Origin: Candidatus Kuenenia stuttgartensis | GTDB lineage: Bacteria > Planctomycetota > Brocadiia > Brocadiales > Brocadiaceae | Assembly: GCF_900232105.1 (NCBI RefSeq) | Contig: NZ_LT934425.1 | Coordinates: 1,380,001-1,412,000 of the forward strand | Length of the DNA: 32,000 bases | Direction: 5' to 3' | In this document: positions 3,159 to 32,000 of the stretch, piece after piece | Numbering within the stretch: the first letter of the stretch is position 1 | How the letters are laid out: each line of letters begins with the position of its first letter | Notes under the pieces: generated by a model | Told to the model about the DNA's origin: nothing | Databases searched by the model: none | The model's input: only the letters and a program-made list of their open reading frames with translations | Made by a program: the position numbers and the translations under genes

Positions 3159-3444
3159 CACTACAAAGAAACAACCATGACAGGGTTAATGCACTGCCAA
3201 TTTTTGTGCTGGACGTAAGAATAAAATGTCGCTTTAGGTAACACTTTAGTTTTTTGGAAAACGTATCACCTAATAGAGCGCAAAATATTGCATCTCTCTA
3301 CCGTAGGAGCAAGCTGTCTCCCTGTCAATCATTCATTTTACAGGTTGCTCCTGACGGAGCTATTTATCCTAAGCTAGCATAGCCAGAACTAAACAAGCAC
3401 GAAATACGAAAGATGCTCTCGTTTAGCATTTCAAATAATACTCT

Positions 3445-3470
3445 CGTTCCCAAGCTCTGGCTTGGGAACG
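3445..3470. repeat. REP palindrome CGTTCCCAAGC-TCTG-GCTTGGGAACG
   Basis: Perfect 11-bp arms with a 4-nt loop, with the same arms as the palindromes next to the RAYT genes. Confidence 0.85.
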
Positions 3471-3636
3471 CAATTGTTTGAGAAGCTCCAGCTTCGCCTG
3501 GAAAAAAAGAATGAAAAATGCTACCGATGATATTTAAAAATATCTTTCGGTGCTTCATCTTACCCATTTAGTCCACATACAAAGTTTAAACCGAATAATT
3601 ATGACGAAAGGGAAGCGGGAGCTTCCAATGCATTTA

Positions 3637-3662
3637 CGTTCCCAAACCGGAGCTTGGGAACG
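3637..3662. repeat. REP palindrome CGTTCCCAAAC-CGGA-GCTTGGGAACG
   Basis: One arm mismatch; otherwise identical to 13329-13354 and 30864-30889. Confidence 0.8.
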
Positions 3663-3730
3663 AGCGCTTTTACTTTTTAAAGAATATAAACTGTTAGCGC
3701 TTTAGTTATTATTCAAGGTTAACGCAAGGG

Positions 3731-13003: not shown

Positions 13004-13045
13004 TTATTTTTTAAAAAAATGGTTTTTTTCTTGCATTTAAAAACG

Positions 13046-13079
13046 CTCGTTCCCAAGCACGAAACACGAAACACGAAAC
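13046..13079. repeat. REP half-site (CTCGTTCCCAAGC) fused to a (CACGAAA)3 heptamer tract
   Basis: Read directly; located 43 nt upstream of the start of the 10460-13003 gene. Confidence 0.75.
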
Positions 13080-13118
13080 AAATTCTAATGACAAAATGAT
13101 TTGAAATTCTAAACAAAT

Positions 13119-13385
13119 GTAACACTTTAGTTTTTTTAAAAAACAAAAATACTCGTTCCCAAACCTTGTACTGAACATAGTGAAGTATCTGTTTGGGAAT
13201 GCATTTGTTTGAGAAACTCCGGTTTCTCGCCTGTTTGCTGATAGATAGGGAATAAAATCACAGGGTTAAGACAGTTTGTAATTTGTCAAGTCAGACCCTC
13301 ACTGGAAACAAAGTTTCCAGTGCAATTGCGTTCCCAAGCCGGAGCTTGGGAACGAGCGTTTTTTTTCATAGAACTAAAGTGTTAC
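13119..13385. mobile_element. MITE-like element (267 bp) with 14-bp TIRs and an 8-bp target-site duplication
   Basis: GTAACACTTTAGTT (13119-13132) and AACTAAAGTGTTAC (13372-13385) are perfect reverse complements. They are flanked by the direct repeat AAACAAAT at 13111-13118 and 13386-13393. There is no ORF. The element contains a long-loop REP variant (13154-13200), the palindrome CACTGGAAAC-AA-GTTTCCAGTG and a canonical REP (13329-13354). Confidence 0.8.
13329..13354. repeat. REP palindrome CGTTCCCAAGC-CGGA-GCTTGGGAACG
   Basis: 26/26 identical to the palindromes 36 nt upstream of both RAYT genes (30864-30889, 31769-31794). Confidence 0.9.
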
Positions 13386-14479: not shown

Positions 14480-14555
14480 TGGAGTTTTTAACTTTTCAAT
14501 AAGTTGGGATTTTTATAATAATTTCTATCTTTCACTGTCCACAGTCCACAATCTG

Positions 14556-14604
14556 CAGTCGGCAATCCGCAATCCGCAATCCGCAATTTGCCGATTGCCG
14601 ACTG
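14556..14604. repeat. Hairpin CAGTCGGCAATC ... GATTGCCGACTG enclosing a (CCGCAAT)3 heptamer tract
   Basis: Perfect 12-bp arms, located between two minus-strand genes. No adjacent U-tract on either strand. Confidence 0.8.
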
Positions 14605-15983: not shown

Positions 15984-16033
15984 AGAAATTATTTCCCCCC
16001 GGCGCTGTCTTTGTATGCGCCATCAAAAACGCC

Positions 16034-16090: not shown

Positions 16091-16128
16091 GGCTCATAGC
16101 TCATAGCTCATGGCTTATGGCTTATGGG
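16091..16128. repeat. Heptamer tandem repeat (GGCTCAT/AGCTCAT/GGCTTAT) x5
   Basis: Read directly. Confidence 0.9.
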
Positions 16129-16166: not shown

Positions 16167-16553
16167 TTGTCATTGCGAGGGTCTTTTCCGAAGCAACCTC
16201 ATAAACCGTCATAGAGATCCTTCCATCCTGCATTCATTCCATTAATTAATTCTATTTTTTTAGCCCTTGAGCCACCTTTAATTTGCTTCTCCCGGAATAT
16301 GGCGTTTCTTACGTCACGAAATATCTCGTAGTATACTAACTTTGTAACATTGTACTTTTTTGTAAACCCCTCGACCCTCTTCTCTCTATGCTCATATACT
16401 CTTCTTTTAAGATTGTTCGTAACCCCTGTGTAGAGTACGGTATTATTTTTATTCGTCATTATGTAAACAGAGTATAATTTATCCATTACAATCACCTTGA
16501 TTGATCTGGCATTATAAAAAAGATTGCTTCGGAAAAGACCCTCGCAATGACAA
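16167..16553 (-). mobile_element. Compact GIY-YIG cassette bounded by perfect 30-bp inverted repeats
   Basis: TTGTCATTGCGAGGGTCTTTTCCGAAGCAA at 16167-16196 has its exact reverse complement at 16524-16553. The only content between them is the GIY-YIG ORF. Confidence 0.7.
16199..16495 (-). CDS. Small GIY-YIG nuclease-family protein (COG2827/UPF0213-like)
   Basis: YSVYIMTNKNNTVLYTGVTNNLKRRVYEHR forms the GIY...YxG...R core, with a downstream conserved Glu (FREKQIKG). The track start is GTG 16495; ATG 16486 (MDKLYSVYIM..., 95 aa) is the more likely start. Confidence 0.85.
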   Translation of the reverse strand: MIVMDKLYSVYIMTNKNNTVLYTGVTNNLKRRVYEHREKRVEGFTKKYNVTKLVYYEIFRDVRNAIFREKQIKGGSRAKKIELINGMNAGWKDLYDGL

Positions 16554-16768
16554 GTTTTGTAACATTGTACTTTTTTGTAAACCCCTCTACCCTCTTCTCT
16601 CTATGCTCATATACTCTTCTTTTAAGATTGTTCGTAACCCCTGTGTAGAGTACGGTATTATTTTTATTCGTCATTATGTAAACAGAGTATAATTTATCCA
16701 TTACAATCACCTTGATTGATCTGGCATTATAAAAAAGATTGCTTCGGAAAAGACCCTCGCAATGACAA
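16554..16768 (-). pseudogene. 3'-truncated GIY-YIG copy with its own right-hand repeat (215-bp tandem duplication)
   Basis: 16557-16768 repeats 16342-16553 almost exactly. The ORF (track 16492-16710) keeps the first ~53 aa and then reads into the 30-bp repeat (…VTKLVIARVFSEAIFFIM). Confidence 0.8.
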
Positions 16769-16774
16769 GCCGGG

Positions 16775-17187: not shown

Positions 17188-17427
17188 TTGTCATTGCGAG
17201 GGTCTTTTCCGAAGCAACCTCATAATATCCGTCATAAGAGACCTCGACCCTCTTCTCTCTATGCCCATATACTCTTCTTTTAAGATTATTCGGAACCCAT
17301 GTGTAGAGCACTGTATTAATTTTATTCGTCATTATGTAAACGGAGTCTAATTTATCCATTACAATTACCTTGATTGAATCTGGCATTATAAAAAAGATTG
17401 CTTCGGAAAAGACCCTCGCAATGACAA
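17188..17427 (-). mobile_element. 240-bp internally deleted (non-autonomous) derivative of the GIY-YIG cassette
   Basis: It has the same perfect 30-bp inverted repeats (17188-17217 / 17398-17427). The interior keeps about 47 N-terminal codons (MDKLDSVYIMTNKINTVLYTWVPNNLKRRVYGHREKRVE) joined directly to the 3' end. Confidence 0.75.
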
Positions 17428-17755
17428 GTTGGGACATTTTGGAACCCGCAGGGCGCTGCTGAAGCCACTTGGCTACCCGTGCTACTTCGCGCAATGACAA
17501 AAGCTGAGAGTACCTTTAGGAACCCGCAGAGGTAGTAGTCTTTTTTGCATAACCATTTTTATGAAGGTATACTTCAACAAGGATGGGTTCCATGTTCAAC
17601 GGTTCAGGGGTTTTCATTAGTATACCTCCGGCGGGTTCAGTTTTCGTCGTAAGCTCAGCCGAACGGTTGCAAACCTGAACAGTATCAGATTGTCATTGCG
17701 AGGACATCAGCTTGTCTTTGAAGGGGCATCCGCTTGTCTTTGCGAAAGCATCCGC

Positions 17756-17995
17756 TTGTCATTGCGAGGGTCTTTTCCGAAGCAACCTCATAATATCCGT
17801 CATAAGAGACCTCGACCCTCTTCTCTCTATGCCCATATACTCTTCTTTTAAGATTATTCGGAACCCATGTGTAGAGTACTGTATTAATTTTATTCGCCAT
17901 TATGTAAACGGAGTATAATTTATCCATTACAATTACCTTGATTGAATCTGGCATTATAAAAAAGATTGCTTCGGAAAAGACCCTCGCAATGACAA
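17756..17995 (-). mobile_element. Second 240-bp internally deleted derivative of the GIY-YIG cassette
   Basis: Perfect 30-bp inverted repeats at 17756-17785 / 17966-17995; the interior is nearly identical to 17188-17427. Confidence 0.75.
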
Positions 17996-18259: not shown

Positions 18260-19060
18260 ATGACTATCGACGACCCAATAGCAATATTTGATTCAGGGGT
18301 GGGGAGCCTTTCAATAATAAAGGAAATCAGAAATGCCTTGCCCGGCGAGAATTATATCTACCTCGCAGATAAAAAACATTTTCCTTATGGAAAAAAAACA
18401 CACGATGAATTGTTACGCATTATCCGGAACACCATAGAGTATCTTTCGAAAAATTTCACCCCAAAACTCATTGTGCTTGCCTCCAACACGCCTTCCATTC
18501 AGGTGCTTCATGAATTGAAAAAAGGGGCGGTTGACGTTATCGGCGTATTTCCTCCGGTCAATGAAGCTGTAAGTGTCTCCAAAACAGGACACATCGCCAT
18601 TTTGGCAACGCAAAACACGGTAATGAGTTCCGAACTGGACGAGTACATACACTCGCAGAAGATTCCGGCATCGGCAAAAATCATAAAGTGGAATGCCTCA
18701 CGGATGGTAGAGCTTGTGGAAACGGGAGATTTTTTGTCAAATAAGGATAAAAGCCTCAGAATAATCTCCGAAGAGCTTTCACTGTTGGAAGAGACGGATA
18801 ACATGGTCGACACAATTACACTTTCAAGCACACACCTTCCTTTTTTAAATGAATATTTTGCGCTGCTAAGGCCCTGCCTTCATTTAATTGACCCCGCAAA
18901 GATTGTTGCCAGAAAAGTAAAAAGTCTGCTGGAAAGAAATCTTCGTACTACGTCACAAAAAGGAACCCTGGAAATATTGGCCACGCAGGGAAAAGAATCA
19001 CTCGAAACAATCATAAAAAGGCTTGGCATCCAAGAGGAAATACACGAGGTACGGTTTTAG
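18260..19060 (+). CDS. murI: Glutamate racemase-like protein with Ser at both canonical catalytic Cys positions
   Basis: MurI-type N-terminus IAIFDSGVGSLS...YLADKKHFPYGKK. The motif expected as ACNTA reads ASNTP (Ser75, TCC 18482-18484). The motif expected as GCTH reads SSTH (Ser190, AGC 18827-18829). Confidence 0.7.
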   Translation: MTIDDPIAIFDSGVGSLSIIKEIRNALPGENYIYLADKKHFPYGKKTHDELLRIIRNTIEYLSKNFTPKLIVLASNTPSIQVLHELKKGAVDVIGVFPPVNEAVSVSKTGHIAILATQNTVMSSELDEYIHSQKIPASAKIIKWNASRMVELVETGDFLSNKDKSLRIISEELSLLEETDNMVDTITLSSTHLPFLNEYFALLRPCLHLIDPAKIVARKVKSLLERNLRTTSQKGTLEILATQGKESLETIIKRLGIQEEIHEVRF

Positions 19061-19100
19061 AGGTACGAAATACGATTTACAATTTGTACCATGAGCAATT

Positions 19101-19134
19101 AGCCATGAGCCACCAGCCATCAGCCATGAGCCAT
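19101..19134. repeat. Heptamer tandem repeat (AGCCATG/AGCCACC/AGCCATC) x~5
   Basis: Read directly; it abuts and overlaps by 1 nt the stop codon (19134-19136) of the minus-strand gene. Confidence 0.85.
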
Positions 19135-23220: not shown

Positions 23221-23248
23221 TTTTAGTTTTAGTTTTAGTTTTAGTTTT
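23221..23248. repeat. Hexamer tandem repeat (TTTTAG) x~4.5 in the phoU leader
   Basis: Located 21-48 nt upstream of the phoU ATG and flanked by the direct repeats TACGAATTACAA / TACGAATCACAA. Confidence 0.85.
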
Positions 23249-23308
23249 ACGAATCACAATAATTTCCCCTCCACTGGGTGGCAATGGGGGGCGTCTTACG
23301 CACACACT

Positions 23309-23355
23309 CGTTCCCAAACCTTTTACTGAACATAATGAAGTATCTGCATGGGAAC
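23309..23355. repeat. Long-loop REP variant (CGTTCCCAAACC...CATGGGAAC)
   Basis: Nearly identical to 13154-13200 (CTCGTTCCCAAACCTTkTACTGAACATArTGAAGTATCTG). Confidence 0.7.
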
Positions 23356-23530
23356 ACAATGGCACTGGAAACTATATTTGAGGGTTCAGATTTGTAACCG
23401 TTCGGCTAAGCTCACGACGAACCATTCTTATAGCTCATGGCTCATAGTAATTTGGCTCATGGCTATCAGCACACAAGGGCATCCGTTTGTCATTGCGAGC
23501 GCATCCGTTTGTCATCGCAAGCACATCCGC

Positions 23531-23681
23531 TTGTCATTGCGAGGGTCTTTTCCGAAGCAATCTCATAAACCGTCATAACGAGCCGTGTATCGTTTATGCT
23601 GAATAGTTACATTTTTTTAGCCCTTGAGCCACCCTTAATTTGCTTCTCCCGCGATATGGCGTTTCTTACGTCACGAAATAT
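23531..23681 (-). pseudogene. Solo 30-bp GIY-YIG repeat plus a 3' fragment of a GIY-YIG gene
   Basis: 23531-23560 is 30/30 identical to the left repeat of the cassette. 23611-23681 matches the master gene 3' region (encoding IFRDVRNAISREKQIKGGSRAKK). It is preceded by three 22-bp GCATCCGyTTGTCATTGCGAG sub-repeats (23478-23543). Confidence 0.75.
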
Positions 23682-24501: not shown

Positions 24502-27500
24502 TTATTTTGCAAGAGTGACGTTTACTTTCGGTTTATCTTTCACACCTTTTACAGCAAACTTCACGTTAGCTTTTCCTTTGCTCTTCTTCGCCTTCACGGT
24601 AAACGTTGCCTGGCCACTTGTATCTGTTGTTTCGCTGGCAGGCGTTACCTTAATCTTCTTCTTGTTAGCCGAAGTAAGCTTCCTCTTTACCTTCACGCCT
24701 TGTGCAGGGCAACCATCTTCATCTGTTACCAGCACTATAACGTCTTCGCTGTCACCTTTTGTAAGACTCAGGCTATCCGGTGTTACAGTAGCGGCTGAAG
24801 CAACTGCCTCATCCGGTTCCGGACATGGTCCTTTCGGTTCCAAGGTTACTGGCAGGATCGTTACCGGAGGTGTCACTGTTACCGTTACAACCGATGTGAG
24901 ATAGTCAGTTGCACTTACAGAAACCTCGTAATCACCGGCTTCGAGGGTAAAGGTAGCTCCACCACTTGCATCCGTAACTCCGGATTGTCCATCAACAGTC
25001 ACCGTAGCTCCTGCGATTGGAATGCCATCTCCATCCGCAACCGCAACTACCAATGTCGCAGTTGGTGGAGGCGTCACAGTTGGCGTTGTTATTGGTGTTC
25101 CCTGAACAGAAGCAACCAACGCGAAGTCGAGGTTTGTTGTCCCGCCTGCCGTTACTACTATAGCAGTAGGGGCTGAGGGAACGTAACCGAGAGCCACAGC
25201 GGTAAAGGTACGAGTTCCAGCTTCAACATTCGCAATCGAGTAGAACCCATCCGCGTCAGTTGTATCAGTGTAAATCCCTGACTGATTACGCACCGTCGCT
25301 CCTTCAATGCCATCCCCTGTCGCCGCATCCGTTACAAACCCTTCTACCGAACCGAGTCCAGGTATCAGAGATGGTGTTGGCGTTAGCCCAGGGGTTGGAG
25401 TTATTCCAGGCGTTGGAGTTACCCCAGGCGTTGGTGTAGGCGAAGGTGTTACAGCAGCCGTTATAGCAGCCGTATCCGTCACAGTCCTGGTTGACGATGT
25501 TGTATTTATCGTGTCTGAATAAGTCACCGTCAGCGTTTCACCTTCTGCTCCCTGAATCTGGTTAAATTCAGTAGTAGCACCGCTAGAAGTTACCAGGATA
25601 GACCCTACAAATGTTCCTGTGTCATTACCCGTTTCCACCAGCCTCATCTTCGTGCTGTTTACTGAAGATGTTTGAATAAACACATCATCTAACAACGTTT
25701 CAGTGCCTGTATGAGACGTATTTCTTTCTGCATCAGCCAATGTGACAATAGCATATGTGCCTAAACCATAGGAATCTGCATTAAACTCTATAGTCGCATC
25801 ATAAGAGCCAAATGACAGCGTCTCTGTGACGGTAGTGTTGGAAGGGCTGGAATCCGTGTATGTTACAGTAACAACCCCGCCTTCCTGTGCTTTCACCTTA
25901 CCTAAATTAGCACTTGTTTCAACTGTTTCTGTACCAGTGGTAAAGGTGGCAAGGAATGTTCCGGAGGTATTTCCGCTTTCTACAAGATCTAGCGTAAGAG
26001 CGCCACCTGTAGAGTAATTGCTGCCCTCTATCTTAAGCTTATCAGTCAACGTATCTTGCCCGGAAGTGGTATTCTGATCATCATCAACTACGGATACCAC
26101 CACAGTATCACCGCTCAGGTAGGCTTTCGCTTTACTCAATAATAAAGATCCTATGCTAGTCTCGATACTTAACGGACCGACCACCCTATAATTTGTAGAG
26201 TTGTCCTCTGCAGTAGCGCTTGGAGAATCATTATAATGAACATAAATGCTATCTCCGCTGGATACCTGCAATCTGTCGGAGCTATTCAAGGTGGAACTCG
26301 AACTAGACAATTGGAACGAACCTTTAAATGTTCCAGAGTTAACCGCAGTTTCTTCTAACTTAAAATCGATAGTGTTACTACTCTGATCTACCGATGAACT
26401 TAACACATTGCTAAGTTTGCTTGCATATAAAACCTTTGCAGTAAAGCCATTTTTAAACAAGCCATCAGGTGCATTAGAAGTCGAAGAACCTACCGGATTA
26501 CCCAATCCGTTTTCATTGTAAAAAGTCACATATCTTGTGCCACTTTCGGTACGATCTGGTTCGCTGGTAGTCTGCTTGGACGATGTACTCGTATTTAAAT
26601 CCTCATCAACCAATGTCACCACTACGTATTGATTAGGCCCAATGGTTCCAGATACATTGGTAGACAACTCTCCATCATATGTTTGAAAACCTACATCTGA
26701 AGCAGTCGCAGCCAAAGTATCACCCGCCTTATAGTTACCATCTGCATCTTTGGCATCATTATAACGAATGCGATAGGTTGCGCCAAAAAATCCACCGATG
26801 CGGAATACTTTCGCACCGTTGGAAAGTGTGTCCTCACGAGCCGTAGTCATATCATTTCCTATCACCTGGATCCATGTCTTGTATGGTGTAAATGATGTAG
26901 AACTCGCCAGCTTAGTAACAACCATCGTAGAACCCGCGACTGAAACTACTTCCTGAAATTCCTGAGAAAAATCATCACGTACTCTTACCACTGACCCGGT
27001 ACCAATGAATGAATCCAATCGATTGGTAGAATTGAACTCAGAATTTGCAAACGTAATTGTCGTGTAATCCGTGGAATCTGAAAACGCTGTAGTCCTCGTA
27101 AGAGTTGTATCTGTCGTGACCCTAGCCGCTGTATAATCAAATCCAACCGTACCTACAAAAGTTGCCGAATTTGCCCCGGTTTCTGTCACTGGGATAGCAA
27201 TCCATCTCGTACCATCAGGCGATATTTCAACGGTATCACCCAACCCATCAAGAGTCGCAACAAAAGATGACGTGGTCGCAGAGCTCAGGAAACTCTTCGC
27301 AGCACTTGAAGCTCCTTTCATAAGGGCGTTAGTATCAACACTCTGAGTGCCCAATGTAAAGGTTGCGCTGCCGGCCGAACTGCTACGGGTACCTGGAGTA
27401 CCAATATAACCACTGCTTGGATCTTTTGGAATAATCCAAACCAGAGAATTATCGGTGTTAGATACACGTATAGCCGATGACGTTCCGACAGAAGTACCAT

Positions 27501-29277
27501 CCTTAAAACTCAACGAAAGCGCATTGCCAACCCCTTCTCCAGAGCCAGAGGAATACGCCGCCACCTTCAAACGATCGCCTCTCTCCGCCGTGGTGGTGCC
27601 ATTCCATGAATCCTCACCGACTGACTGCGAAGTAGAACTTGAAGTGTTAAGGTTATCATCAATCACAGTGACTGTTAAGAAATCATTTATATCAACAGTG
27701 GTTTTATCAACAGACAACTCCCCGGTTTTCCCGGCAATTCCAAATGAAATATTGGCCGAAACCGTCCCTGCTTGTCCGTTAGATTTCAACAAATCTAGAT
27801 AAGAAACCTTCAAGGTATCACCATCTCTCGGACCAACCAGCCTGAAGCCGTCAAAAACTACGCTAACGCTACCGTAGCCGCTATTGGCTATAATATCACC
27901 TTCAGTACCAAGTCCAGCCGAATCATTAGGTGTGCTAAACGAGCTCACTGCAATCAAACAATATGAACTTCCATCCATCAACTTAACAAGCTTAGAACCT
28001 GTTGCCGCATAATTAGAGGAACTACTCGGCAAGCCCCAAGCAGAAACCGCATATCCAGTACTGGTCTGTGTTCCATAACACACAACTTTGTGGCCGGTTT
28101 GAGTATCTCCGAGCGATAATGAACTTGTGCCAAAGGCTACAAGAGATGCTCCGACATCTGCCCTAGGGGCAGAAGTTGCGTCAAAAACAACACTGACTGT
28201 TCCATAAGTTTCGGTTGATGTACCATTATAAATAAGCGCAATACCGCCGTTTGCGTTCGCCTCGACAATCCGAAATGTACACGAAACAGTACCGGCCCCC
28301 AAGGTAATATCCTGCCCCTGATAGTAAGATTCAGAACTGCTTCCAACTTTCAGATTTCCTACCAAATCACTAGCCGCAACGGTAGTTGTAGTGCCGTACA
28401 CATAACCGCTTGCCGTAAAAACCCCGGTATTATTACCCGTCTCCACAAGCATTATATGCCTTGCGACAATAGATGTGCCGCCCAAGGATAACGTGTCGCC
28501 CGTATCAGAGGATTGATCAACTGCAGAAATCTGCACCATTGAAGATGCCGTACCCCTTGTGTCACCCGTTGTAAACCCGTCATAAAACCCAATAACATCC
28601 CTGACGACGGGATTAAGGTTTTCATCAGGATCTGAAATACTTAAAATAATATTCCCGTTTGATGGCAAGCCTTCAACCGAGGTAACGCTGGACGGTGAAG
28701 AACTAATGCTACCACTATTGAAACCTACCGTTGCGGTATCCAACGTTGATCCGCCATACAATAGCTCTAAAGTGGAACCCTCCGCAACTTTCAAATCCCC
28801 ACTAGTGGCAGACTGCGCATTTCCACCGATGTTCGCAGCATTCAGCCTCAAATCCAATCCAACAATGCTGTTTCCAAGGACTGAGTACCAATAACTCCCT
28901 GCAAGATCTTCCACATATCCGGAAGTAGTCCCCAAAGCCCTGTAATTGGGCTGTACTGTACCAGTAGTGGTAAATACCGTAGAAGTGTTACCCGTTTCGA
29001 GCAAAATAAACGAGGTAGCGTCGTCTACACCAGCTCTTACCGTTACCGTAATGGTATCCGGAGAACTTGTCGTATTACCTGAGCTGTCTGTCACAGAAAT
29101 CCACGCACGATCGTAATCGTTACCCCCAGCTTTTTCTGGCAGATAGCGATCACGGTCAAAACTCCCCGTGGCGGCCTTTGCGTTTGACGCTACGCCCATA
29201 ACCAGGGCCAGCATCAAAAACAAAACACCTGCCATGCTTAACCAATTGCCTTTTAAATTTAATCCAGGTCTTTTCAT
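24502..29277 (-). CDS. Giant secreted Thr/Ser-rich surface (S-layer-like) protein, 1591 aa
   Basis: Signal peptide (MAGVLFLMLALVMGVASNAKA/AT). Six repeats of a three-part signature: VxVxDxDxN, L-x-E-T/S-G-N-x-x-G-x-F, and G-x-x-h-x-V-x-Y-x-D. PT linker TPSPTPTPGVTPTPGITPTPGLTPTPS (about nt 25363-25452). Two carboxypeptidase-regulatory-like beta-sandwich modules and a Lys-rich Ig-like C-terminal module. GGAG lies 11 nt before the ATG and a strong terminator follows. The resemblance to Kuenenia Kustd1514 is from memory only. Confidence 0.8.
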   Translation of the reverse strand: MKRPGLNLKGNWLSMAGVLFLMLALVMGVASNAKAATGSFDRDRYLPEKAGGNDYDRAWISVTDSSGNTTSSPDTITVTVRAGVDDATSFILLETGNTSTVFTTTGTVQPNYRALGTTSGYVEDLAGSYWYSVLGNSIVGLDLRLNAANIGGNAQSATSGDLKVAEGSTLELLYGGSTLDTATVGFNSGSISSSPSSVTSVEGLPSNGNIILSISDPDENLNPVVRDVIGFYDGFTTGDTRGTASSMVQISAVDQSSDTGDTLSLGGTSIVARHIMLVETGNNTGVFTASGYVYGTTTTVAASDLVGNLKVGSSSESYYQGQDITLGAGTVSCTFRIVEANANGGIALIYNGTSTETYGTVSVVFDATSAPRADVGASLVAFGTSSLSLGDTQTGHKVVCYGTQTSTGYAVSAWGLPSSSSNYAATGSKLVKLMDGSSYCLIAVSSFSTPNDSAGLGTEGDIIANSGYGSVSVVFDGFRLVGPRDGDTLKVSYLDLLKSNGQAGTVSANISFGIAGKTGELSVDKTTVDINDFLTVTVIDDNLNTSSSTSQSVGEDSWNGTTTAERGDRLKVAAYSSGSGEGVGNALSLSFKDGTSVGTSSAIRVSNTDNSLVWIIPKDPSSGYIGTPGTRSSSAGSATFTLGTQSVDTNALMKGASSAAKSFLSSATTSSFVATLDGLGDTVEISPDGTRWIAIPVTETGANSATFVGTVGFDYTAARVTTDTTLTRTTAFSDSTDYTTITFANSEFNSTNRLDSFIGTGSVVRVRDDFSQEFQEVVSVAGSTMVVTKLASSTSFTPYKTWIQVIGNDMTTAREDTLSNGAKVFRIGGFFGATYRIRYNDAKDADGNYKAGDTLAATASDVGFQTYDGELSTNVSGTIGPNQYVVVTLVDEDLNTSTSSKQTTSEPDRTESGTRYVTFYNENGLGNPVGSSTSNAPDGLFKNGFTAKVLYASKLSNVLSSSVDQSSNTIDFKLEETAVNSGTFKGSFQLSSSSSTLNSSDRLQVSSGDSIYVHYNDSPSATAEDNSTNYRVVGPLSIETSIGSLLLSKAKAYLSGDTVVVSVVDDDQNTTSGQDTLTDKLKIEGSNYSTGGALTLDLVESGNTSGTFLATFTTGTETVETSANLGKVKAQEGGVVTVTYTDSSPSNTTVTETLSFGSYDATIEFNADSYGLGTYAIVTLADAERNTSHTGTETLLDDVFIQTSSVNSTKMRLVETGNDTGTFVGSILVTSSGATTEFNQIQGAEGETLTVTYSDTINTTSSTRTVTDTAAITAAVTPSPTPTPGVTPTPGITPTPGLTPTPSLIPGLGSVEGFVTDAATGDGIEGATVRNQSGIYTDTTDADGFYSIANVEAGTRTFTAVALGYVPSAPTAIVVTAGGTTNLDFALVASVQGTPITTPTVTPPPTATLVVAVADGDGIPIAGATVTVDGQSGVTDASGGATFTLEAGDYEVSVSATDYLTSVVTVTVTPPVTILPVTLEPKGPCPEPDEAVASAATVTPDSLSLTKGDSEDVIVLVTDEDGCPAQGVKVKRKLTSANKKKIKVTPASETTDTSGQATFTVKAKKSKGKANVKFAVKGVKDKPKVNVTLAK

Positions 29278-29734: not shown

Positions 29735-29763
29735 AATATAGCACGCAATCAGATGACAGTCAA
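29735..29763 (-). promoter_or_regulatory. Candidate sigma-70-type promoter for the S-layer gene (long leader)
   Basis: The minus strand reads TTGACT (29763-29758), a 17-nt spacer, and TGc-TATATT (29740-29735). This would give a leader of about 450 nt. Weaker alternatives exist nearer the gene. Confidence 0.35.
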
Positions 29764-29830: not shown

Positions 29831-29914
29831 GAAGTCAGAAGTCAGAAGTCAGAAGCCAGAAGCCAGAAGTCAGAAGTCAGAAGTCAGAAGTCAGAAGCCA
29901 GAAGCCAGAGGTCA
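29831..29914. repeat. Heptamer tandem repeat (GAAGTCA/GAAGCCA) x12
   Basis: Read directly. The homologous position in the next two units has only about 3 units. Confidence 0.9.
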
Positions 29915-29960
29915 TAGGGCAGAAGTCGGCAGTCGGCAAATTACAGATTGAGGATTGCAG

Positions 29961-30016
29961 ACTGGGGACTGGGGACTGGGGACTGGGGACTGGGGACTGG
30001 GGACTGGGGACTGGGA
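29961..30016. repeat. Heptamer tandem repeat (ACTGGGG) x8
   Basis: Read directly. The homologous positions at 31011-31024 and 31930-31943 have 2 units. Confidence 0.9.
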
Positions 30017-30058
30017 ACATCTCTCGTTCCCAAGCATCTCTCGTTCCCAGTCTCTCTC

Positions 30059-30264
30059 GTTCCCAAGCTCCGGCGTACACCCTTGTTCCCAAGCTCCGGC
30101 GCACACCCTTGTTCCCAAGCTCCGGCGCACACCCTTGTTCCCAAGCTCCGGCGCACACCCTCGTTCCCAAGCTCCGGCGCACACCCTCGTTCCCAAGCTC
30201 CGGCGTACACCCTTGTTCCCAAGCTCCGGCGTACACCCTTGTTCCCAAGCTCCGGCTTGGGAAT
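30059..30264. repeat. 26-bp tandem array (7 units) of REP half-sites ending in a complete REP palindrome
   Basis: The unit GTTCCCAAGCTCCGGCGyACACCCTy starts at 30059, 30085, 30111, 30137, 30163, 30189 and 30215. The last unit (30241) is completed to GTTCCCAAGC-TCCG-GCTTGGGAA. Confidence 0.9.
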
Positions 30265-30293
30265 ACGCTTATACCAGAAGCTCCAGCTTCTTT

Positions 30294-30827
30294 TCATAAT
30301 TCAATTTGATCTATCTCGATACATCCTTTGCCATAAAGGTAATTCCCTGCGCTCGAATAAACCCAATGTCCGGCATCTTCTACCAGCCCCCTTCTTACAG
30401 GATTGCAATGTATATATGCAACCTTTTGTCTAAACACATCCTCCTGCGCAACCACCTGCGGGTGGAATCCTTCCTGCCATACCTGATATTCGCTGGTAGC
30501 CTTGTGTCCTTTTTTATAAAATTCAAACTGTTTCAGAAGCCGCTTCCTCTGATTCTCTTTTGCTATCCGTATAATTTCCCGCGCAGTATAGCTCTTAAAA
30601 TCTCTTATTATTCCAGACACCGCCTCTGACGAAACAAGAAGGTGTATATGGGTATCCATTACAACATAAGCAAACAATCGCAGCCCTTTTTTCTGTCTGC
30701 AATAAGTTAACGAATTGACTATGATGTCGCAAAATATCTTTTCTGTAAATACCGGTAGCCACCCGACAATTGTAGAGGTTATAAAATACAGGTTGCTGTT
30801 TTTTACTATTTTGTAACGTGATCTCAT
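30294..30827 (-). CDS. REP-associated tyrosine transposase (RAYT; IS200/IS605-like Y1 HUH protein), copy 1
   Basis: HUH motif VVMDTHIHLLV and C-terminal catalytic-Tyr region KVAYIHCNPVRRGLV; 177 aa; REP palindromes on both flanks. Confidence 0.8.
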   Translation of the reverse strand: MRSRYKIVKNSNLYFITSTIVGWLPVFTEKIFCDIIVNSLTYCRQKKGLRLFAYVVMDTHIHLLVSSEAVSGIIRDFKSYTAREIIRIAKENQRKRLLKQFEFYKKGHKATSEYQVWQEGFHPQVVAQEDVFRQKVAYIHCNPVRRGLVEDAGHWVYSSAGNYLYGKGCIEIDQIEL

Positions 30828-30863
30828 GATTTTCCGCGCAAAGCATCGCTTTTACCGCATGTA

Positions 30864-30923
30864 CGTTCCCAAGCCGGAGCTTGGGAACGAGGGTGTGCAC
30901 CGGAACTTGGGAACGAGGGTGAA
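30864..30923. repeat. REP palindrome plus an inverted 26-bp unit upstream of RAYT copy 1
   Basis: CGTTCCCAAGC-CGGA-GCTTGGGAACG followed by AGGGTGTGCACCGGAACTTGGGAACGAGGGTG. The latter is the reverse complement of the 26-bp unit found on the other side of the gene. Confidence 0.9.
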
Positions 30924-31067
30924 ACAGTCCTCAATCGGCAATCGGCAGTCAGAAGTCAGAGGTCTGAAGTCGGCAGTCGGCAGTCGGCAAATTACAGATT
31001 GAGGATTGCAGACTGGGGACTGGGAACACCTCTCGTTCCCAGGCATCTCTAGTTCCCAGTCTCTCTC

Positions 31068-31169
31068 GTTCCCAAGCTCCGGCGCACACCCTCGTTCCCA
31101 AGCTCCGGCGTACACCCTTGTTCCCAAGCTCCGGCGTACACCCTTGTTCCCAAGCTCCGGCTTGGGAAT
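31068..31169. repeat. 26-bp tandem array (3 units) plus terminal REP palindrome
   Basis: Units start at 31068, 31094 and 31120; the terminal palindrome is at 31146-31169. Confidence 0.9.
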
Positions 31170-31198
31170 ACGCTTATGCCAGAAGCTCCAGCTTCTTT

Positions 31199-31732
31199 TC
31201 ATAATTCAATTTGATCTATCTCGATACATCCTTTGCCATAAAGGTAATTCCCTGCGCTCGAATAAACCCAATGTCCGGCATCTTCTACCAGCCCCCTTCT
31301 TACAGGATTGCAATGTATATATGCAACCTTTTGTCTAAGCACATCCTCCTGCGCAACCATCTGCGGGTGGAATCCTTCCTGCCATACCTGATATTCGCTG
31401 GTCGCCTTGTGTCCTTTTTTGTAAAATTCAAACTGTTTCAGAAGCCGCTTCCTCTGATTCTCTTTTGCTATCCGTATAATTTCCCGCGCAGTATAGCTCT
31501 TAAAATCTCTTATTATTTCAGACGCCGCCTCTGACGAAACAAGGAGGTGTATATGGGTATCCATTACAACATAAGCAAACAATCGCAGCCCTTTTTTCTG
31601 TCTGCAATAAGTTAACGAATTGACTATGATGTCGCAAAATATCTTTTCTGTAAATACCGGTAGCCACCCGACAATTGTAGAGGTTATAAAATACAGGTTG
31701 CTGTTTTTTACTATTTTGTAACGTGACCTCAT
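31199..31732 (-). CDS. REP-associated tyrosine transposase (RAYT), copy 2
   Basis: 177 aa, differing from copy 1 at 4 residues (AVSGI/AASEI, QVVAQEDVF/QMVAQEDVL), with the same flanking palindromes. Confidence 0.8.
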   Translation of the reverse strand: MRSRYKIVKNSNLYFITSTIVGWLPVFTEKIFCDIIVNSLTYCRQKKGLRLFAYVVMDTHIHLLVSSEAASEIIRDFKSYTAREIIRIAKENQRKRLLKQFEFYKKGHKATSEYQVWQEGFHPQMVAQEDVLRQKVAYIHCNPVRRGLVEDAGHWVYSSAGNYLYGKGCIEIDQIEL

Positions 31733-31768
31733 GATTTTCCACGCAAAGCATCGCTTTTACCGCATGTA

Positions 31769-31828
31769 CGTTCCCAAGCCGGAGCTTGGGAACGAGGGTG
31801 TGCACCGGGGCTTGGGAACGAGGGTGAA
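31769..31828. repeat. REP palindrome plus an inverted 26-bp unit upstream of RAYT copy 2
   Basis: Same sequence as 30864-30923 except GGGG for GGAA in the second unit. Confidence 0.9.
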
Positions 31829-32000
31829 ACAGTCTTCAATCGGCAATCGGCAATCGGCAATCGGCAGTCAGAAGTCAGAGGTCTGAAGTCGGCAGTCGGC
31901 AGTCGGCAAATTACAGATTGAGGATTGCAGACTGGGGACTGGGAACACCTCTCGTTCCCAGGCATCTCTAGTTCCCAGTCTCTCTCGTTCCCAAGCTCCG

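Follow-up and report, generated by a model that had tools for sequence, protein, structure and literature searches.

Towards the right end of a 32,000-nucleotide (nt) stretch of DNA from Candidatus Kuenenia stuttgartiensis (contig NZ_LT934425.1, positions 1,380,001 to 1,412,000; called here 'the window'), two adjacent and almost identical minus-strand genes encode transposases of the RAYT type (RAYT stands for REP-associated tyrosine transposase, and REP for repetitive extragenic palindrome). Each gene is bracketed by inverted copies of its own REP, the combination termed a 'REPtron', and this identification is well supported. Our fuller interpretation—that the locus is a REPtron consisting of a TnpA-REP-type RAYT and its cognate REPs, that it was duplicated in tandem by unequal recombination, and that its enzyme would follow the chemistry of the Escherichia coli counterpart—we hold with a probability of roughly three in four. 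The duplication is real but fairly ordinary, a local event of a known kind that comprises two genes and no long array, and it has no evident consequence. An earlier description of this DNA, made without databases (the 'sequence-only reading'), had recognized the genes and the palindromes around them. To it we add that each REP comprises two hairpins, that arrays of 26-base-pair (bp) repeats beside the genes vary among strains, and that the same hairpin occurs in many phyla.

The upstream copy occupies positions 31199-31732 and the downstream copy 30294-30827, both on the minus strand. Both were detected as open reading frames (ORFs) with Pfam and NCBIfam matches, and both encode 177 amino acids (aa), of which 173 are identical; the four differences noticed at the outset are, in the downstream copy relative to the upstream, A70V, E72G, M125V and L132F. 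At the DNA level 8 of 534 nt differ, and these changes are divided equally between synonymous (four) and non-synonymous (four). That both genes encode RAYT-type Y1/HUH transposases is supported by profile matches and by a predicted structure. The two proteins score 31 bits against the Pfam family Y1_Tnp (PF01797; cut-off 23), and 108.9 and 110.5 bits against NCBIfam NF047646, the equivalog model for REP-associated tyrosine transposases (cut-off 80), so the profile check agrees with what had been read from motifs. A search with a profile of the family found a single sequence relative in the PDB, 4ER8, which is the E. coli RAYT with a bound REP hairpin. The AlphaFold2 model of the Kuenenia protein (pLDDT 78.5, pTM 0.79) likewise has 4er8_A as its top Foldseek match (E = 2.6e-6; TM-scores 0.59 and 0.62), followed by the transposases of ISDra2, IS200 and IS608. 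In a 24-sequence family alignment, H60 and H62 of the HUH motif, W117, Q118, Y138 of the motif YIHCNP, N142 and P143 are all invariant; the HUH and tyrosine-helix hallmarks reported earlier therefore fall in columns that do not change. No other sizeable ORF, and none resembling tnpB, lies within the 905-bp unit that the genes define.

The hairpins that surround the genes are cognate REPs, and the genes sit in REPtron geometry. In each REP a CT-containing 5' flank precedes a hairpin with an 11-bp stem (HP1), and roughly 12 nt inwards from this comes a second, short hairpin (HP2). Each gene has such a REP on both sides, in inverted orientation and with HP2 towards the gene. On the 5' side of the upstream copy, HP1 (CGTTCCCAAGC-CGGA-GCTTGGGAACG) occupies 31769-31794, 36 nt from the ATG, and HP2 (AAAGC-ATC-GCTTT) is placed at 31745-31757, between HP1 and the ATG, from the identical sequence of the downstream copy. 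On its 3' side the REP spans 31146-31195, with HP1 (GTTCCCAAGC-TCCG-GCTTGGGAAT) at 31146-31169, 30 nt past the stop codon, and HP2 (GAAGC-TCCA-GCTTC) at 31182-31195, ending 3 nt from that codon. The downstream copy repeats the pattern: 5' HP1 at 30864-30889 (CGTTCCCAAGC-CGGA-GCTTGGGAACG, again 36 nt from the ATG), 5' HP2 at 30840-30852 (AAAGC-ATC-GCTTT, folded in this copy), and a 3' REP at 30241-30290 (HP1, GTTCCCAAGC-TCCG-GCTTGGGAAT, 30241-30264; HP2 30277-30290) whose single-strand fold has z = -5.5. The palindromes originally placed 36 nt before the start and about 30 nt past the stop are thus where they were said to be, at both genes. HP2 comes in several versions in this DNA (GAAGC-N4-GCTTC, GAAAC/GTTTC and CACTGGAAAC/GTTTCCAGTG), and the two-hairpin REPs, folded as single-stranded DNA, reach z-scores of -4 to -8. 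Enrichment figures refer to the 32-kb window: the 24-nt palindrome occurs seven times there against none in 100 shuffles, and the 10-mer arm 35 times against 1.9 expected. Rfam has no family for the REP at either gathering or permissive thresholds.

The same arrangement extends across the family. Our set comprised 82 loci of 41-100% amino-acid identity (80 metagenomic homologue loci, the window and two close relatives), and a hairpin lies upstream of the gene in 61 of them, downstream in 58 and on both sides in 52, inverted and at similar distances. The RAYT/REP geometry proposed for the two Kuenenia genes is, then, that of most of their homologues. Throughout, the foot of HP1 (GTTCCCA/TGGGAAC) is conserved, and the four apical base pairs vary in compensatory fashion (AAGC, ACGC, AGGC, AAAC, AAGT and others): the apical stem is fully paired in 107/119 REPs, with more than 10 pair types. 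A CT dinucleotide stands directly 5' of the foot in 101/119 REPs, which matches the CT cleavage site of characterized TnpA-REP enzymes (PMC3333891; PMC8266576). HP2, for its part, tends to duplicate the apex of its own HP1. Among the 80 REPs in which an HP2 can be detected, 28 are exact matches, a number that would rise if a register shift of one base were allowed; shuffles average 10.6 and never exceed 20. The likeness covers the apical stem of the neighbouring main hairpin and in many cases its loop too, and the two hairpins co-vary across the family (AAGC/GAAGC, ACGC/GACGC, AGGC/GAGGC, AAAC/GAAAC); within the window the likeness can be seen at 30277-30290, 30840-30852, 3482-3495 and 13211-13227.

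REP sequences are usually described as lineage-specific. Exact matches to this hairpin occur in at least 120 reference-genome stretches from many phyla; among the matches listed are Desulfobacterota, Planctomycetota (Scalindua, Brocadiaceae, Anammoxibacter), Methylococcaceae, Verrucomicrobiota, Ignavibacteria, relatives of Geobacter, large sulfur bacteria and one cyanobacterium. The form GTTCCCARC-N4-GYTTGGGAA, with a CTC flank and HP2, was seen in reference genomes (loci L014-L133 of our collection) and in metagenome contigs (L135-L213), and it flanks homologues of the 177-aa RAYT down to about 41% identity. By tblastn, a RAYT homologue adjoins the REP in only 3 of 120 REP-bearing loci, an outcome that fits dispersed REPs but is not very informative. 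Literature searches found no paper that links RAYTs or REPs to anammox bacteria, and no description of this REP hairpin. The broader suspicion that planctomycetes lack a characterized REP/RAYT system is not supported, since REPs and RAYT-like tyrosine transposases have already been reported from them (PMC3733652; PMC6006769, class 3).

Intact RAYT genes number only two in every assembly, and every strain also carries a 30-33-nt 3' remnant of a third. The multi-copy tandem array of the sequence-only reading is thereby reduced to two genes and a remnant, and two is also the genome-wide count in the closed genomes: 'transposase group 35' is listed with two complete copies in MBR1, two in CSTR1 and one in the draft KUST, and with no remnants (PMC7709395 Table S8). 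The two-gene layout is common to four other assemblies, namely the 4.33-Mb single contig CP049055.1, two further NCBI assemblies and one JGI metagenome contig. Among the Kuenenia loci that we compared with the window (L001-L004), the DNA of the upstream copy is identical in all four, and the same eight inter-copy differences are fixed in L001, L003 and L004. Each copy being identical in the window and these three, the duplication must be older than the divergence of the strains concerned. L002 has the upstream type in both positions, a state consistent with gene conversion or collapse. The single KUST gene, kustd1517, shares 98.87% identity with either CSTR1 copy (PMC7709395 supplement), which we read as two differences from each; this suggests either a recombinant (hybrid) gene or a collapsed assembly.

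How unusual is such a pair? A RAYT is typically present in one copy per REP family per genome, inherited vertically at a stable locus. The Kuenenia RAYT departs from the single-copy norm by its two adjacent copies. We found no tandem RAYT duplicate in about 80 metagenomic homologue loci, and the closest relatives in other organisms (80% and 68% identity) are single-copy and at different loci. The second of these, from 'Planctomycetes bacterium RIFCSPHIGHO2' (L218-L221, 7944-8587), is a single RAYT with two REPs set between the genes for the A and B subunits of a V-type ATPase, in the same orientation as the operon, and this arrangement recurs in several assemblies. The view that near-identical duplicates are atypical of RAYTs stands insofar as they are rare; they are nonetheless documented: near-identical duplicates sharing a replicon account for 0.8-6.3% of the members of RAYT groups 1-5 (PMC5581495).

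What was duplicated is a whole unit, made up of the gene with its REPs, a 26-bp half-REP array and a microsatellite spacer. The period is not as exact as first described. From gene to gene the spacing is 905 bp, as stated, but the spacer module, which occurs three times in the window (from 29916, 30925 and 31844), recurs at intervals of 1009 and 919 bp. Between the genes it occupies 30925-31081 and consists of (TCGGCAG)n heptamer microsatellites, a unique stretch, and REP arms truncated to 16 or 17 bp. The distal module (29831-30068) contains (GAAGTCA)14, (GACTGGG)8 and, again, 16/17-bp truncated REP arms. The third begins at about 31844 and runs to the end of the window (31844-32000), 98% identical to 30925-31081. 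The sequence-only reading had seen in it the start of a third unit, and to that extent was right, but in sister strains this unit has no gene: the spacer leads into one or two 26-mers, which are followed by a 3' REP and by the final 30-33 nt of a RAYT ORF, beyond which the sequence is unrelated. Heptamer microsatellites of various kinds lie in many intergenic regions of the window (13060-13080, 14538-14587, 16095-16125, 19089-19134, 23221-23249, 29831-30015, 30935-30989 and 31840-31908) and in L003 (7123-7209, 9271-9367). Some runs begin right at a truncated REP arm, as at 13045-13080 and, on the minus strand at about 29960-30025, where GTTCCCAGTC is followed by (CCCAGTC)n. The (GACTGGG)n repeat is presumably the same as the cyanobacterial STRR1, (CCCCAGT)n.

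The 26-bp unit is itself derived from the REP. It comprises the first 19 nt (CTYG, left arm, loop and GC) followed by GYACACC, that is, CTYGTTCCCAAGCTCCGGC + GYACACC, and by itself the array has no fold (z = -0.8). Arrays lie to the left of each gene on the plus strand of the window, 3.7 copies at 31065-31161 for the upstream gene and 7.6 copies at 30059-30256 for the downstream. Self-comparison of the window shows one further unit, inverted, to the right of each gene and outside the 5' HP1 (31795-31826 and 30890-30921, respectively). As a result, each gene stands within inverted repeats of 56 nt that are 91% complementary. The number of units varies among strains at all three array positions: 1-2 at one, 3-5 at the position of 31065-31161 and 1-9 at that of 30059-30256. 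Kuenenia strains are reported to exceed 99% average nucleotide identity (ANI; PMC7709395). The 26-, 16- and 17-bp units all begin at one point, CTYG, the foot of the hairpin. Beside this REP in other DNA, from Desulfatirhabdium and from metagenome contigs, there are analogous arrays made of the loop and 3' arm, with units of 25 nt in Desulfatirhabdium (L049 and L022), 17 nt (L045) and 27-48 nt (L149).

We propose that the duplication arose by unequal homologous recombination between the modules that flank the gene as direct repeats, and that the same process may sometimes reverse or homogenize it. We favour this route because the repeat unit includes spacer that is not REP, because the left boundary of the unit falls inside coding sequence, and because homogenized (L002) and apparently hybrid (KUST) states exist. 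As for the enzyme, by homology to E. coli TnpA-REP the RAYT would bind folded HP1 on single-stranded DNA, cleave C^T at the foot of the hairpin through a 5'-phosphotyrosine intermediate, and re-join strands. Such cleavage and re-joining would mobilize or amplify REPs, and could give rise to dispersed intergenic copies. The TnpA-REP proteins of E. coli, S. maltophilia and Marinomonas bind folded single-stranded REPs, cleave them at CT or CA via phosphotyrosine, and join strands (PMC3333891; PMC8266576).

The unit anatomy also invites a larger claim, namely that the 177-aa RAYTs and their double-hairpin, GTAG-less REP with its GTTCCCA foot constitute a distinct, undescribed class of REPtron that crosses phyla, that the half-REP arrays are traces left in vivo when a RAYT cleaves and transfers strands, and that the gene duplication is a by-product of this activity. 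This is possible, but we offer it as speculation, with the odds clearly against it. A related alternative, which we consider doubtful, is that the RAYT itself built the tandem structure. Repeated cleavage at the CT, copying by primer extension or in rolling circles, and transfer of strands would then have amplified the half-REP units and possibly the gene unit too. Models of this kind have been proposed for the amplification of bacterial interspersed mosaic elements (BIMEs) by E. coli TnpA-REP. The common starting point of the 26-, 16- and 17-bp units at the hairpin foot is what such a process would leave; the swing from one to nine units at a single position between such close strains, and the analogous arrays in unrelated genomes (L049, L022, L045 and L149), point the same way, and strand transfer by TnpA-REP in vitro is able to build tandem BIMEs (PMC3333891). 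Any tandem repeat, however, changes in copy number through ordinary replication slippage and unequal recombination, for which no dedicated enzyme is needed; the gene-scale duplication takes in spacer that is not REP and begins within a coding sequence rather than at a hairpin foot; and the protein went undetected in the CSTR1 proteome. Unequal recombination thus remains our preferred account of the gene duplication.

Several observations weigh against the interpretation as we have framed it. The REP does not have the canonical GT[AG]G head at its 5' end, its flank being CTC or CTT and then GTTCCCA. In both copies two residues depart from what at least 93% of relatives conserve: N59T, a lineage-specific substitution that adjoins the HUH motif, and W96R. 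Neither protein was detected in the CSTR1 proteome, and promoter-like sites upstream of the two genes are no better than chance. The REP is not found in another 28 kb of Kuenenia DNA (L001 1-9600 and L222, the latter an 18-kb 'Kuenenia sp.' locus reached via a representative of a multi-copy IS4 transposase cluster). Finally, unequal crossing-over is read from the anatomy of the locus, and for the short arrays amplification by the enzyme is a live alternative. Concerning the first of these, GT[AG]G is also missing in TnpA-Y1 subclasses 2.6 and 3 (PMC6006769), and so defines the canonical type of REP rather than the protein family.

Some of the same observations could mean that both genes are inactive relics and the REPs fossil repeats, mobilization having ended. 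The two substitutions, the silence of the proteome, the want of a recognizable promoter, and the even mix of four non-synonymous and four synonymous changes between the copies are what one might expect of genes past use. Yet neither ORF is broken, each has the same sequence in the window as in three other assemblies, and all catalytic and invariant residues are retained. N59T and W96R are the only departures among 59 highly conserved columns; across the family the median is one, and 22 of 117 sequences have two, which makes the Kuenenia protein ordinary, and for this reason we set aside the idea that it is degenerate. Proteomes, moreover, typically miss transposases, whose expression is too weak. 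We judge extinction of the system improbable.

More improbable still is that the locus is an autonomous insertion sequence of the IS200/IS605 type that transposed beside itself. Its subterminal hairpins bracket the gene as the ends of IS200/IS605 elements do, and its relatives occupy non-syntenic loci, one of them between the V-ATPase A and B genes, so the unit does move over evolutionary time. Against the IS200/IS605 equivalog NF033573, however, the two proteins score only 25.6-26.9 bits (cut-off 55), and no tnpB-like ORF accompanies them. The two copies in the genome are both at this locus, with no remnants elsewhere (PMC7709395 Table S8); they differ at eight fixed sites; and the repeat unit holds spacer DNA and a fragment of coding sequence instead of clean element ends. 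Last, the notion that the tandem repeat is a single copy expanded in assembly draws on the one copy of the draft Sanger KUST assembly and on the many short-read contigs that break within the locus, and can be dismissed, given that the layout is the same in three other assemblies and in a genome assembled as one 4.33-Mb contig, that the same eight differences separate the copies in the window and in three of these four, and that MBR1, closed with single-molecule real-time (SMRT) reads (PMC5854607), lists two copies, as does CSTR1.

Away from the RAYT locus, three other intergenic regions of the window contain five REPs and two half-sites, where about 0 would be expected. An inverted pair of two-hairpin REPs at 3443-3665 is intergenic and encloses unrelated DNA (z = -5.7 and -4.2). 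A second dispersed inverted pair is found at 13152-13358 (z = -4.4 and -8.0), the left member of which has a 26-nt insertion in the loop of HP1, and beside it, at 13045-13080, (ACGAAAC)3 comes after a truncated REP arm. In both pairs the members are about 200 bp apart; we considered whether the pairs might be copies of one miniature inverted-repeat transposable element, and rejected this because their interiors are unrelated. A solitary intergenic REP of the long-loop variety occurs at 23307-23385, and a further truncated arm at 16031. The relaxed hairpin pattern was as frequent in shuffles as in the real sequence, and 9-mer half-sites were therefore counted in its place; the count is 10, against 0.2 expected. 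The REPs at 13155-13200 and 23310-23355, and one in L001 at 18332-18377, share the 26-nt insertion CTTKTACTGAACATARTGAAGTATCT in the main-hairpin loop and can be regarded as a sub-family. The window has other repeats as well. A family distinct from the REP comprises 22-nt tandem repeats and single copies with TGTCATTGCGAG(G/C) (16170-16185, 17684-17770 and 23479-23543); a 215-bp unit is present twice in tandem with 99% identity (16341-16769); and two nearly identical 36-nt segments lie 568 bp apart (17261-17296 and 17829-17864).

The exact RAYT proteins are present in Candidatus Kuenenia stuttgartiensis, where the upstream copy is KsCSTR_09930 of strain CSTR1 and has exact matches in 12 contigs, and within the species the locus is stable. 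Gene order is invariant: four tandem paralogues encoding small coiled-coil membrane proteins, then the two RAYT genes, then a protein of 1563-1593 aa, which is the S-layer protein kustd1514 (KSMBR1_1301, KsCSTR_09970; PMC7709395). The S-layer gene, which the RAYT pair adjoins on its upstream side, is the minus-strand ORF at 24502-29277 of the window, downstream of the pair. Divergence among strains is concentrated in its central part (about 25384-29138), and the promoter-like site that scores best (TTGACT-17-TATATT, extended -10) is at 29735-29763 on the minus strand, some 70 bp downstream from (GAAGTCA)n. We considered a tie between the repeat arrays and variation of the S-layer gene and discarded it, the variable part being within kustd1514 and away from the arrays. 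Past the right end of the window, in L003 (6495-9228), the four tandem paralogues of 165-193 aa have heptamer arrays between them. They possess an N-terminal hydrophobic segment, a variable count of heptad repeats resembling QFDRIDKQFDR, and a C-terminal membrane segment; Pfam has no recorded hit for them.

In the Kuenenia genome papers the two genes appear only under 'hypothetical protein' or 'transposase group 35'; they can now be named as RAYTs, and a REP family has been identified in an anammox genome. The Kuenenia genome is known for heavy rearrangement. Of specialist interest are the family-level architecture of the REP—a foot kept across phyla, no GTAG head, and a second hairpin that co-varies with the first—and the half-REP arrays that vary among strains. 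To our knowledge, RAYT activity in vivo has never been observed directly, and if it were true that the enzyme makes the arrays, these would be a rare natural record of it.

It remains to place the Kuenenia system among those already known. With IS200/IS605 elements such as IS608 and ISDra2 it shares the protein fold and the logic of subterminal hairpins, and by analogy the single-strand 'peel and paste' chemistry would be expected of it; it differs in falling below the cut-off of the IS200 model, in being neither multi-copy nor dispersed, and in having no tnpB. Kuenenia has, separately, a genuine IS200/IS605 group whose 141-aa transposases are present in 5 complete copies in KUST, 2 in MBR1 and 5 in CSTR1 (PMC7709395 Table S8). 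The TIRYTs and TIRtrons of Di Nocera et al. (2013; PMC3733652), compared by description, are again RAYT-like genes, and the long inverted repeats at their flanks have no relation to GTAG REPs. Among these repeats are double-palindromic ones and ones that form moderately abundant dispersed families, and one host, R. baltica, belongs to the Planctomycetes; their shared terminal inverted repeat (TIR) motif, GGGGWSAS, is not present in Kuenenia.

The closest characterized counterpart is the E. coli REPtron (TnpA-REP, 4ER8; Ton-Hoang 2012, PMC3333891; Messing 2012, PMC3479197), although in structural alignment the two proteins are only about 16% identical. Common to both are a Y1 HUH protein with HUH, WQ and YIxxNP motifs, inverted cognate hairpins that flank the gene, dispersed intergenic copies of these (within the window, in the case of Kuenenia), a CT beside the hairpin, and tandem REP units. 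The Kuenenia REP differs in having neither the GTAG head nor a bulge, HP1 being a perfect 11-bp stem; each of its ends carries an additional small hairpin, which mimics the apex of HP1; and its gene is tandemly duplicated.

Among classes defined by sequence, TnpA-Y1 class 3 is found mainly in Planctomycetes, and flanks other than GTAG have been described for it and for subclass 2.6 (PMC6006769). Subclass 2.6 of Quentin et al. (2018; PMC6006769) is equivalent to RAYT group 5 of Bertels et al. (2017), and is reported mostly from Bacteroidetes. The few of its REP entries that we compared, for example GCTAG-CGCGAGCG-TCC-CGCTCGTG, are unlike GTTCCCAAGC-N4-GCTTGGGAAC, and in the REP table of that study TTCCCAA and TTGGGAA (one entry each) and GTTCCC match only unrelated entries of subclass 2.4. 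Genes of subclass 2.6 are described as flanked by atypical secondary structures that have no GT[AG]G and that are copied elsewhere in the genome. Their signature is NH[LIV]H / WQ / YIH[QN]NP with a median length of 179 aa; the consensus of the present family is DNHxH / WQEG / YIHxNP at 177 aa, and the Kuenenia protein itself has THIH and YIHCNP. Compared in this way, by motif description, the subclass 2.6 signature is the one that fits this family best.

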